Shown: positions 4,490-9,811, numbered from the stretch's first letter. The stretch is 64,000 nt of DNA from a virus (IMGVR_UViG_3300023063_000003:2749-66748); one strand, 5' to 3'. Notes: generated from the letters alone by a model not told the origin. Translations and numbers: made by a program.

Positions 4490-4598
4490 TTCTTCTATTC
4501 TTCCATATTATTATTATTATTATTATTATTTAAAAATATAGAAGAAGTGAATAAGTGCCAGAGAAATTTTCGGCGATGGAAGTGTGGAAGTATGGAAT
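4490..4598. repeat. AT-rich element A: 9-bp inverted repeat around (TAT)8, followed by three GGAA repeats; candidate replication origin element
   Basis: TTCTTCTAT 4490-4498 / ATAGAAGAA 4538-4546; (TAT)8 4506-4529; GGAA at 4578, 4586, 4594. Confidence 0.6.
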
Positions 4599-4661: not shown

Positions 4662-4699
4662 AAGCCCAGATAGGTAAAACCTGTCCGGGCTTTTGTTTT
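4662..4699. terminator. Intrinsic terminator between convergent late and early arms
   Basis: AAGCCCAGATAGG-TAAAA-CCTGTCCGGGCTT hairpin followed by TTGTTTT. Confidence 0.7.
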
Positions 4700-4713: not shown

Positions 4714-5727
4714 TTAATCCAGCGGCACCAGGGCATGCACCACGGCGCGGAAGATGAAGTCCTTCGCCTGCTGTTCCGGTGGCAGCTGATTAAACGGCAT
4801 GATGCACGGGTGCTGCTTGTTGACCGGATCTTTATAAGCGCCGTACGTCCAGCCGTCAGCGACCTTCTGGGCCGTCCAGCTTGCGTGCGACGCTTCAGGG
4901 CCGGCGTCCGGATTCGTGGTATGCAGCGTCACGCCCATCTTGGCCGAGGAACGTTGCCATTCAGGCGCGTCTTCCCACGCTGGCTGGCTCAGATCGCCCA
5001 GGGCCTCGCAGTAGGCTTTATTGACCTCGTGGGCAACACGAGCCACGTCGTCCTGGCTAAACGCTGCCTTGGCCCCATTCTGGCCCTCCATGGCGAGGTT
5101 TTCCTTGAGTAAATAGCCTTCGAGCATCCAAACCTTGTCGATAGCCATTTTGCGGGCAATATGCCGGCCGATCTCGGCGTCGAAGTTCTCCGCGCTGGCG
5201 CAGGCCGACTCACCCGTGACCGTGAAGCCGTTCTTGAGCGTGAGGACGCAAAAGGTGAGCAGGCCAAGCGACGGGCTGAGCGCTTCGACACCAGTGTAGC
5301 TGGCCAGCGCACCCTGATCAGCGGTGAAGTAATTCTCGGCCACGACGGTGTCGTTGATATGGTCTAGCGTGACGCGCGGCGCTTGGCCCGGGGCATAGGC
5401 TTTGATCGACTGGGCAATCATGGCGTCGGCGATCTTGCCGGTGTCATTCATTTTCTTTTCGACCGCTTCGGTCTTCGCTGCTTGCCCCAACTGGTACGGC
5501 ATCCACTCGGCGAACTCGGCGCCGGGTTTGGCATCGCCTTCCTGGACGAGCAGCACCGACGTGCGCGCATAGGCTACACCGTTCGCGTCAGAGACCATCA
5601 AGTTGACGCAGCGGTCGTTCCACACCTTAGCGACGATCGCCGCCAGTGGTTGACCTGCTGCGGCCGCGCCGGGGAAGCCCCGGGCAGGATAGTAGTGGAC
5701 GATGCGGCCCACGGTAGGTTTGATCAT
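4714..5727 (-). CDS. Three-domain protein: KPTVGRIVHY domain + Phage_gp49_66 (Acb4-like) domain + RyR domain; candidate nucleotide-signal sponge
   Basis: Middle LTFCVLTLKNGFTVTGESAC..NFDAEIG..IA..W.LEGYLL (gp49/66 signature). C-terminal HxxW..K..DGWTYG..KD..K.HPC..P...LP..Q..KD (RyR repeat). Confidence 0.75.
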   Translation of the reverse strand: MIKPTVGRIVHYYPARGFPGAAAAGQPLAAIVAKVWNDRCVNLMVSDANGVAYARTSVLLVQEGDAKPGAEFAEWMPYQLGQAAKTEAVEKKMNDTGKIADAMIAQSIKAYAPGQAPRVTLDHINDTVVAENYFTADQGALASYTGVEALSPSLGLLTFCVLTLKNGFTVTGESACASAENFDAEIGRHIARKMAIDKVWMLEGYLLKENLAMEGQNGAKAAFSQDDVARVAHEVNKAYCEALGDLSQPAWEDAPEWQRSSAKMGVTLHTTNPDAGPEASHASWTAQKVADGWTYGAYKDPVNKQHPCIMPFNQLPPEQQAKDFIFRAVVHALVPLD

Positions 5728-5808
5728 GACTTGCCTTTCGATGTGCCGCGACTTCGCACGATGCCGGCGCGCGGCTGACCAGGAACAGCGGACCTTTTAC
5801 AGCGCGTG

Positions 5809-8724: not shown

Positions 8725-9129
8725 TTACCCCTGGGTGACGCCGATAATAAATTCCGCGATCTCACGCGGGGTGAGAATGCGCTTCATGAATTCGGCTTTG
8801 GTTAATGGGTGTTCCCACTCGCGGTGCACGAAGATCACACCGCCCATCGGGGAGCCGATGACGACGGCCAGATTGCGCCCTTCCTCATGGCGATTTAAAC
8901 CCCAGTCAAGCTGCAATGCTGACAGATCAATCGGCACGATCGTACTGTCCCGCAATGGCAGAGGCTCGAACTTGTATTCGATCCAGAGATCAGCGTGGTG
9001 CCCAGAGTACCAGCAGTCCCAAATGCCCGAGGTGTACAGGTTATTATTTTTCATATAGTAGGGATCATGGCGGCCGGCCGGCAGATGTGCGTGCACCCGG
9101 CCAGTGAAGCGGGTCTCTGGGCCAGACAT
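8725..9129 (-). CDS. PD-(D/E)XK nuclease, Holliday-junction resolvase / VRR-NUC-like
   Basis: E..F, GI.D, WIEYK and LS..Q..W motifs. Confidence 0.7.
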   Translation of the reverse strand: MSGPETRFTGRVHAHLPAGRHDPYYMKNNNLYTSGIWDCWYSGHHADLWIEYKFEPLPLRDSTIVPIDLSALQLDWGLNRHEEGRNLAVVIGSPMGGVIFVHREWEHPLTKAEFMKRILTPREIAEFIIGVTQG

Positions 9130-9677
9130 CAGCGCCCCGCTTCGTCGAGCAGGCGGCGGAAGTCTTCAGCGCTGAGCGAGACCTTGCCGGAGTCACGACC
9201 ACTGCCGAACTTCACCGATTTTAATTGCTCTGGTTCGGCGCGTGGTGCGCTCGGCGCCACGATGAACCGGTCGTCCTTGCCGGCGCTGCGCAGCTGGTAT
9301 GCTGTCAGCACCAGCGCGCCGAAGCCCGCCGCCGCCGTGTGCAGCACAGCGGACTCGGCGTCGTGGGACTCGCCTGACCAGAATGCAGACAGGTGACGAT
9401 GCGTGGCGCCGTAGACGCGGCCCCAGTCCATGCCCTTCTCCCAATTGCGGTCCGCATATTTCTGCGCACCAAACGTGAAGACGCGCGCCACTTCGTTGAT
9501 CGCATCAGGCGGCAGCAGTTCATGGCGCACTTTGCCGGCGTCAAGTTTGACGCCATTGGACGCCATGCCGGCCGGCTTGGAACCGTCGGCGGCAAGTTCA
9601 GCGGCAAGGACATCGATATCAATGACCTGACCATTACGCGTGTGCACGCGATCACGGTAAAAAGGACCAGCACCCAT
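9129..9677 (-). CDS. dATP/dGTP diphosphohydrolase-domain (DUF5664) protein
   Basis: K.D.GK...LLP..A...VA.V..FGA.KY..RNWEKG......A..RHL..D.ES...H. Confidence 0.8.
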   Translation of the reverse strand: MGAGPFYRDRVHTRNGQVIDIDVLAAELAADGSKPAGMASNGVKLDAGKVRHELLPPDAINEVARVFTFGAQKYADRNWEKGMDWGRVYGATHRHLSAFWSGESHDAESAVLHTAAAGFGALVLTAYQLRSAGKDDRFIVAPSAPRAEPEQLKSVKFGSGRDSGKVSLSAEDFRRLLDEAGR

Positions 9678-9811
9678 TATTTTGCTCTCCCGCAAAATGA
9701 TTTGAAATCAGGCCCAAAGTAAAAACGAAAGTCTTCACCAGGGATAAGCATGCCGGCGATCCATAGCACCACAACAGTGGCACCGATGGCGCCTAAAATT
9801 GCGCGGATCAC
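9677..9811 (-). CDS. Small membrane protein (44 aa)
   Basis: GTGA-coupled start; hydrophobic segment ILGAIGATVVVLWIAGMLI; fills the gap exactly. Confidence 0.5.
   Translation of the reverse strand: MIRAILGAIGATVVVLWIAGMLIPGEDFRFYFGPDFKSFCGRAK

Follow-up and report, generated by a model that had tools for sequence, protein, structure and literature searches.

What does the phage protein encoded at 4714..5727, on the minus strand of the viral sequence IMGVR_UViG_3300023063_000003:2749-66748, do, and what is added to it by the N-terminal domain that we term module 1? The window, meaning the whole stretch of DNA that was analysed, is 64,000 nucleotides long and belongs to a 66,748-base IMG/VR virus sequence rated as complete by CheckV. 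The open reading frame (ORF) begins with an ATG and encodes 337 amino acids (aa), which comprise module 1, an Acb4-family domain and a RyR/R12 domain; an identical protein (P0001) was present in a collection of 5.8 billion proteins. An initial annotation, made from the sequence alone, had described the gene as a three-domain fusion that looks like a multi-ligand anti-defence "sponge", that is, a protein that sequesters immune signals. Three modules were indeed found, by phrog_2293, PF13876 and PF02026, and the limits proposed for them (aa ~1-85, ~105-212 and ~225-337) agree with those obtained here to within about 10-15 residues. The best overall explanation, to which we assign a probability of roughly 0.75, is that the product of the gene is a modular counter-defence protein with which the phage targets nucleotide immune signalling. 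Two of its modules are explained by work published in 2025-2026; module 1 stands out as an abundant, sponge-associated candidate counter-defence family.

The middle domain belongs to the Acb4 family

The Acb4-family domain is encoded at 5095..5373 (minus strand), which corresponds to aa 119-211 by the Pfam envelope; phrog_322 spans aa 100-228. The Pfam family PF13876 (Phage_gp49_66) matched over the full length of its profile (1-82 of 82) with an E value of 1.3e-28 and a score of 99.7 bits (cut-off 27), and phmmer aligned the domain to the structure of Acb4 from phage SPO1 (PDB 9e4w; E = 1.2e-4). The initial annotation had equated this family with Acb4, a sponge acting against the cyclic-oligonucleotide-based antiphage signalling system (CBASS). 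The same equation is made by Chang et al. (10.1101/2024.12.30.630793), who describe PF13876 as Acb4, a family of 1,331 homologues and a tetrameric sponge for 3'3'-cyclic GMP-AMP (cGAMP). As reported there, all eight homologues tested bound cGAMP, those with divergent pockets included, and 3'3'-cyclic di-AMP (cAA) was bound as well by the homologues that came from phages infecting Gram-negative bacteria.

The fold was examined on an AlphaFold2 (AF2) model of aa 98-222, built from a 97-row alignment (pLDDT, a predicted score for the local distance difference test, 88.4). A mismatch between the middle domain and the Acb4 fold had been named in the initial annotation as a result that would speak against it. 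In a Foldseek search of the PDB, all of the first ten ranks were occupied by chains of 9e4w, at a probability of 1.00 and E values of 8.8e-4 to 2.3e-3, with a template modelling (TM) score of 0.61-0.70 (target-normalised) and 27-29% identity; the next fold followed at E = 0.14. These matches assign to the predicted domain the Acb4 fold of 9e4w, in which helices flank a three-stranded sheet and the C-terminal helix is long. SPO1 Acb4 is a standalone protein of 96 aa, whereas the domain described here sits between two other modules.

The hydrophobic nucleobase contacts of SPO1 Acb4 are retained in the phmmer alignment, in which F48, F62 and I66 correspond to F168, F182 and I186. Two points weigh against a simple transfer of function from SPO1: five further contacts are altered (E49 to T169, V56 to C176, Y57 to A177, N63 to D183 and T70 to I190), and contacts K36 and K81 lie beyond the aligned region. 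Because of the five substitutions, the ligand range of the domain may differ from that of SPO1 Acb4. By homology, the central domain would form tetramers that sequester the cyclic dinucleotides of CBASS, those of the 3'3'-cGAMP class.

The C-terminal domain resembles RyR Tad

The RyR/R12 domain, of the RyDEP/RyR Tad type, is encoded at 4726..5046 (minus strand; aa 228-334). PHROGs and BLAST placed it at aa 219-334, and PF02026 matched aa 278-323 (E = 1.5e-9; 38.4 bits, cut-off 27.4); both profiles with which the initial annotation had suggested a search, Phage_gp49_66 and RyR, therefore scored above their curated cut-offs. Residues 228-330 were 55% identical over 103 aa to gp68 of Pectobacterium phage CB1, known as RyR Tad (E = 3e-41). 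All six of the RyR Tad binding residues that have been tested by mutagenesis were aligned: H129/W132, K147/H154 and K170/D171 correspond to H281/W284, K299/H306 and K322/D323, and none of these positions varies across an alignment of 12 three-domain relatives. The H/W/H/D set is also the same as in RyDEP, with spacing that matches H75/W78/H100/D117 when the RyDEP numbering is mapped via spacing alone. The two architectures differ upstream of this domain, as the N-terminal partner in RyR Tad is an unrelated beta domain, whereas Acb4 and module 1 stand in that place here.

The suggestion of the initial annotation that RyR repeats bind nucleotides agrees with published accounts of two phage proteins. 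RyR Tad is reported to be a dimeric sponge for glycocyclic ADP-ribose (gcADPR) with a dissociation constant (KD) of 43 nM (10.64898/2026.06.04.730250), and RyDEP of mycobacteriophage DyoEdafos is reported to be a glycosidase for 2'/3' cyclic ADP-ribose (2'/3'cADPR; PMC13232231); by binding or cleaving 2'/3'cADPR, the two proteins block type I Thoeris. By homology, the R12/RyR domain described here would form a dimer and bind the type I Thoeris signals 3'cADPR and 2'cADPR in a predicted pocket lined by H281, W284, K299, H306, K322 and D323. Of the additional signals that had been proposed as ligands, cyclic oligoadenylate (cOA) and cyclic UMP (cUMP) received no support in the tests run.

The same residues raise the question of whether the domain might instead be a RyDEP-type glycosidase, converting 2'/3'cADPR to ADP-ribose. 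The equivalents of the catalytic dyad, H281 and D323, are present, as are W284 and H306. However, the four residues are equally conserved in sponge-type homologues; since the dyad is found in both types, sequence does not distinguish a sponge from a glycosidase, a point that must be held against a firm assignment to the former. In the PDB the domain matched 6uag from B. thetaiotaomicron (E = 1.6e-10), and 35tm, which we take to be RyDEP, only at E = 3.7e-9. The 55% identity noted above is to RyR Tad, which is described as binding gcADPR and releasing it intact. Of eight RyDEP homologues tested (PMC13232231), six are reported to have bound 2'/3'cADPR and none to have cleaved it, the DyoEdafos protein itself being apart from these; that two of the eight bound nothing is a further point against the sponge assignment. 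Overall, the sequence comparisons suggest that the RyR domain is more probably a sponge than a glycosidase, and we regard the latter as quite improbable.

Two sponge domains on one chain

Relatives of the whole protein were drawn from the 5.8-billion-protein collection, from which only the 8,000 candidates with the most shared words were scored. Among the 120 relatives listed as best, PF13876 and PF02026 occurred together in 114, and ten other proteins among them, 47-53% identical to the query, carry all three modules. In one relative (P0090) Tad2 replaces Acb4, and in another (P0116) Sequestin has been added. When the whole protein was compared by tblastn with 50,697 phage records, 805 matched a part of it and none covered 80% or more.

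The initial annotation had also stated that sponge domains are often fused to each other, and this is well documented. Tal et al. (10.1101/2025.07.12.664507) report that an Acb4-Tad2 protein blocks both CBASS and Thoeris, and Sequestin itself was discovered through such fusions. The published examples are Acb4-Tad2 from Pasteurella phage Pm86, Sequestin-Acb4 from phage YH6 and Acb4-Sequestin from phage Ab09 (gp59); the Acb4-Sequestin fusion is a tetramer and binds both signals. The protein studied here appears to follow the same design, in which independent signal-binding domains on one chain are directed at CBASS and Thoeris. Since it combines an Acb4 and a RyR module, it would represent a known type of fusion, one that acts against both CBASS and Thoeris, an interpretation that we consider highly probable. 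A single polypeptide would then blunt CBASS and Thoeris together, as has been demonstrated experimentally for the Acb4-Tad2 and Acb4-Sequestin fusions. The pairing of Acb4 with RyR does not appear in the main texts of the RyDEP, Acb4 and Tal papers, the supplementary tables of which may list such fusions. With the present protein this pairing, of which metagenomes contain many examples, joins the combinations already published, and such multi-sponge fusions allow one phage gene to cover several signalling defences.

Module 1 represents a large viral family with a small-barrel fold

Module 1 is encoded at 5428..5727 (minus strand; aa 1-100) and is predicted to be a small beta-barrel followed by a C-terminal helix. 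It bears the signature IKPTVGR...WMPYQxGQAAK, and phrog_2293 spans its aa 1-96 (E = 2.2e-22). The near-invariant positions are I2, P4, T5, G7, R8, V10, P14, A30, V35, N42, L43, G50, V58, L60 and Q62, together with a C-terminal block, W75-M-P-Y-Q-x-G-Q-A83; the motif quoted in the initial annotation (KPTVGRIVHY..AAIV..V..VNL.V...W) proved to form the core that is conserved across a genuine family. When 1.84 billion representatives were searched exhaustively with HMMER, 3,102 members were returned at E <= 1e-3, of which 1,369 reached E <= 1e-10. Module 1 also exists alone, as the length does not exceed 115 aa in 55 of the best 150 representatives; such standalone members are typically of ~95 aa. 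Among isolated phages, module 1 on its own matched only three of the 50,697 phage records, those of PA8 (twice) and Sopo.

The AF2 model of module 1 (pLDDT 92.6) contains five strands within aa 9-75 and a helix at aa 77-99. No function could be derived for it from Foldseek, VIA-align, BFVD, ESM Atlas, NCBIfam, Pfam or PADLOC. Pfam yielded no family at E <= 10, and NCBIfam and PADLOC yielded none; a profile search of the PDB detected no relative (best E 0.95, to unrelated proteins), and Foldseek against the PDB gave no sponge among the matches listed (best E 0.11). VIA-align, run against 48,161 representative chains, reached a best Z of 6.6, to generic Tudor/KOW/SH3/PWWP barrels, with no sponge among the 50 chains listed. 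The matches in BFVD were to unnamed viral proteins (best E 2.2e-3), and those in ESM Atlas to unnamed viral clusters at 0.93. A complex prediction for a pair of module 1 chains (alignment A3) reached a score of 0.03, the mark being 0.42; it was run without controls and weighs neither way. No published description of module 1 was found in the literature searched, and of the seven sponge families presented in an October 2026 review (PMC13712596), none is described as a small barrel. Two reported proteins were considered as its possible identity and set aside by their descriptions: TadIV-1, which is a helical dimer, and Lockin, an elongated beta hexamer whose pockets are rich in Lys and which was not found in INPHARED by its authors.

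The barrel fold leads to one alternative explanation, that module 1 is a protein-binding inhibitor whose Tudor/SH3-like barrel grips a host sensor, an effector or a sponge guard, in the manner of Tad3-Tad8. Its nearest structures (Z 5-6.6) are barrels that bind peptides or nucleic acids (Tudor, KOW, PWWP and SH3), and the acidic-to-neutral character of module 1 proteins overall would suit such a role. Direct inhibitors of Thoeris proteins are known and, because Acb4-type sponges trigger Panoptes, a companion activity would be useful. On the other hand, Z values in this range are common among unrelated small barrels, no partner is known, and the fusion-partner logic that yielded Sequestin is reported to have given a sponge. 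We therefore hold a protein-binding inhibitor to be an unlikely identity for module 1.

Module 1 is fused to five sponge families

The fusion partners of module 1 were counted from a Pfam table covering 98 proteins of at least 176 aa that bear the module, the query included. Acb4 was the partner in 47 of these, five of which also carry RyR and one Sequestin. Tad2 was found in 12, RyR as the only partner in four (nine with RyR in total) and Sequestin as the only partner in two (three in total); four carried the label PF24729 (Acb2_Tad1_hairpin), one an FGE-sulfatase domain, and 28 had no Pfam partner. Acb4, Tad2, RyR or Sequestin was thus present in 65 of the 98 long proteins. Of the four PF24729 labels only that of P0294 was retained, this protein matching a solved Tad1 in a PDB search (E = 7e-15). 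An independent Pfam scan of 65 longer family members, taken from the HMMER search described above, detected only Acb4 (6), Tad2-like (4) and PF21825 (4) domains and one weak RNaseH match. The association of module 1 with sponges is strong.

Module 1 is N-terminal in 253 of the 255 proteins fetched. In the metagenomic proteins P0005 (module 1 at aa 235-322) and P0095 (aa 233-310), two of the 255, the order is Acb4-RyR-module 1, as expected of an autonomous module. A conflict in nomenclature was encountered at P0338, a Burkholderia cepacia protein composed of module 1 and Tad2: the names given to PF11195 proteins disagree, NCBI calling it 'MW1434 family type I TA system toxin' and UniRef 'Thoeris anti-defense Tad2 family'.

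A second module of this kind was observed at the N termini of CB1 gp68 (locus L084, 12143-12694) and of the Tad2 protein N4 gp49 (L085, 10004-10486). The two N-modules have a motif in common, GYLV.Y ... SWSP..F, and would seem to belong to a single family. Like module 1 they are small, unnamed and beta-rich, and occur alone or at the N terminus of sponge proteins. They form a five-stranded beta domain on Tad2 or RyR and have no detectable relation to module 1, hhalign giving a probability of 1.4% for the N-module of CB1 gp68 and 0.4% for that of N4 gp49. There are therefore at least two separate modules without a name that phages attach to sponges.

The N-terminal position of module 1 would also be compatible with an accessory assembly or stability domain, which dimerises or scaffolds the attached sponges and has no ligand of its own. 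A precedent is the N-terminal five-stranded beta domain of RyR Tad, unrelated to module 1, which is reported to dimerise by strand swap (10.64898/2026.06.04.730250), and the fold of module 1 itself is that of a generic small barrel, without evident pocket homology. However, standalone proteins of ~95 aa are common, both among the best representatives (see above) and at viral loci, where the module 1 ORF was of 125 aa or less in 53 of 80. As a standalone module 1 would have nothing to help, the pure helper explanation is weakened. Moreover, module 1 is often encoded by a separate neighbouring gene rather than as a fusion, and its partner sponges differ in their oligomeric state, some being dimers and others tetramers. 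The probability that module 1 is such an accessory domain is in our view low.

Sponge genes cluster around module 1

Gene neighbourhoods were analysed at the best 80 of 405 confirmed IMG/VR loci, using home-made sponge profiles that are weak for Sequestin and Tad1 and do not include Acb2 and Lockin. Module 1 was fused to a sponge domain at seven loci; ten more had an Acb4, Tad2 or RyR gene on the same strand within 1 kb, and a further five had a sponge gene 1.6-4.6 kb away. The density of sponge ORFs was 0.097 per kb within 1 kb of module 1 as compared to 0.0084 per kb beyond this distance, a difference of ~12-fold, and 15 of the 20 sponge ORFs fell within the 21% of the sequence that surrounds module 1 (binomial p = 2.6e-7).

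The commonest annotated neighbours of module 1 were packaging genes, with TerS, TerL, portal or Mu gp27 lying within four genes of it at a minimum of 21 of the 80 loci. Its place in PA8 is between the genes for portal and capsid; in Sopo it is found between those for terminase and portal. An explanation that starts from these neighbours is that module 1 has no part in defence and is a head-morphogenesis or packaging accessory, and that its fusions arose only from the shuffling of small late genes. The packaging genes in question, however, belong to unrelated lineages, with P22-, Mu- and T7-type portals, which argues for an insert rather than a conserved packaging partner; from this placement, PA8 and Sopo alike, module 1 is best described as a small insert in late modules and replication arms. 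In addition, six of the 21 packaging-adjacent loci carry sponge domains too, the Pfam-recognised partners of module 1 are sponges in 65 of 70 cases, plus four with the Tad1-type label, and the gene at 4714-5727 lies in a replication arm, away from the packaging module. A packaging function is accordingly the explanation that we find very unlikely. The data suggest that packaging modules hold a recurrent accessory-gene slot which module 1 uses.

At the 21 packaging-adjacent loci (within L008-L083), module 1 genes were observed between terminase and portal or just past the portal gene, some of them fused to Tad2 or adjoining Acb4. A subfamily of P. aeruginosa phage and prophage proteins, comprising the PA8 protein (L002, 3995-4801), P0283, P0285, P0125, P0134, P0273 and P0306, has module 1 joined to a helical central region, with a C-terminal tail that is conserved (...AASYRLAASLLQ). 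The partner region of this type had no relative in the PDB, and one may ask whether the tail serves capsid targeting. The gene of this subfamily sits between the portal and capsid genes, and in PA8-like loci a gene with a RyR domain is located ~3.2-3.4 kb downstream. In P0273 an Acb4 domain is inserted ahead of the tail.

Module 1 as a candidate third activity

We infer that module 1 is a unit both independent and portable, belonging to a large family carried by viruses; phages would deploy it by itself, beside sponge genes or in fusions with five families of sponge, and it would most likely contribute a third immune-evasion activity to the protein. We incline to the view that module 1 has some counter-defence role. 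That it is itself a binder of a small-molecule signal, as the initial annotation had suggested in proposing a new sponge family, is a more tentative proposal. Such a binder would constitute a new class of nucleotide-signal-binding protein, with a Tudor/SH3-like barrel as its scaffold and a surface of neutral or acidic character, and this we put forward with reserve. In the same tentative spirit, module 1 might found a new and very large phage immune-evasion family, either as a signal binder or as a companion that shields sponge-bearing phages from the host's guards against sponge activity.

Several observations weigh against a counter-defence role. The standalone members are acidic to neutral, with a median isoelectric point of 5.8, unlike most sponges, which typically have positively charged pockets. 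Among the long module 1 proteins, several of the tails in the 28 with no Pfam partner are Ala/Pro-rich linkers, and the PF24729 label was not reproduced by hmmscan on the two proteins tried. With the home-made profiles, no recognised sponge was found near module 1 at 58 of the 80 loci; the packaging neighbourhoods, the placements in PA8 and Sopo included, point in the same direction. Finally, the N-module of RyR Tad is reported to be inactive on type I Thoeris when alone and to serve dimerisation (10.64898/2026.06.04.730250).

According to Tal et al. (10.1101/2025.07.12.664507), Sequestin was found by querying Pfam for families that occur in fusions with Tad2 or Acb4. As that screen ran over Pfam families, module 1, which has no Pfam model, could not have appeared in it; screens keyed on positively charged pockets may likewise have missed its acidic-to-neutral proteins. 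The family has thousands of members, fusions to five sponge families (Acb4, Tad2, Tad1, Sequestin and RyR) and sponge genes clustered around it. If module 1 does found a new immune-evasion family, it would be the third arm of the protein at 4714-5727 and a reagent-ready family of thousands. It is amenable to testing, being expressible alone and having many natural standalone versions.

Genomic surroundings of the gene

A Shine-Dalgarno-like AAAGG was read at 5734..5738 (minus strand), 6 nt upstream of the ATG. The gene is the terminal one of a leftward arm of ~33 kb and is convergent with a rightward ORF of 529 aa, for which Pfam gave no match. The initial annotation had placed it last in the early arm; the terminal position holds, and "early" is better replaced, since the arm is, judging by its predicted genes, a replication/nucleotide-metabolism arm. 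It contains a family-A DNA polymerase, an ATP-dependent ligase, a MazZ-like diphosphohydrolase domain protein and a dimeric dUTPase. When the first 20 kb were compared by megablast with the 50,697 phage records, no related genome was detected.

The leftward arm is closed by a terminator-like hairpin at 4663..4691 (minus strand), which begins 23 nt past the stop codon. It has arms of 13 nt that include one G-U and one C-A pair, and a UUU loop, and is followed by UUCUUC. The hairpin was spotted by eye and its folding computed afterwards (-18.9 kcal/mol; z -4.37; none of 200 shuffles equally stable). A consensus terminator scan made no call after the gene, as the T-run is short.

The MazZ-like protein (9129-9695, minus strand; 188 aa) matches the N-terminal domain of dATP/dGTP diphosphohydrolase (PF18909; E = 1.9e-29). 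The idea of a Z-genome, containing 2-aminoadenine, to which this gene gave rise was not supported: the PurZ-type adenylosuccinate synthetase family PF00709 had no match in the genome, with 14 of 14 controls positive, and a 2-aminoadenine genome is therefore not indicated. The AT-rich stretch between the convergent arms contains a perfect (AAT)n microsatellite of ~8 units at 4507-4530.

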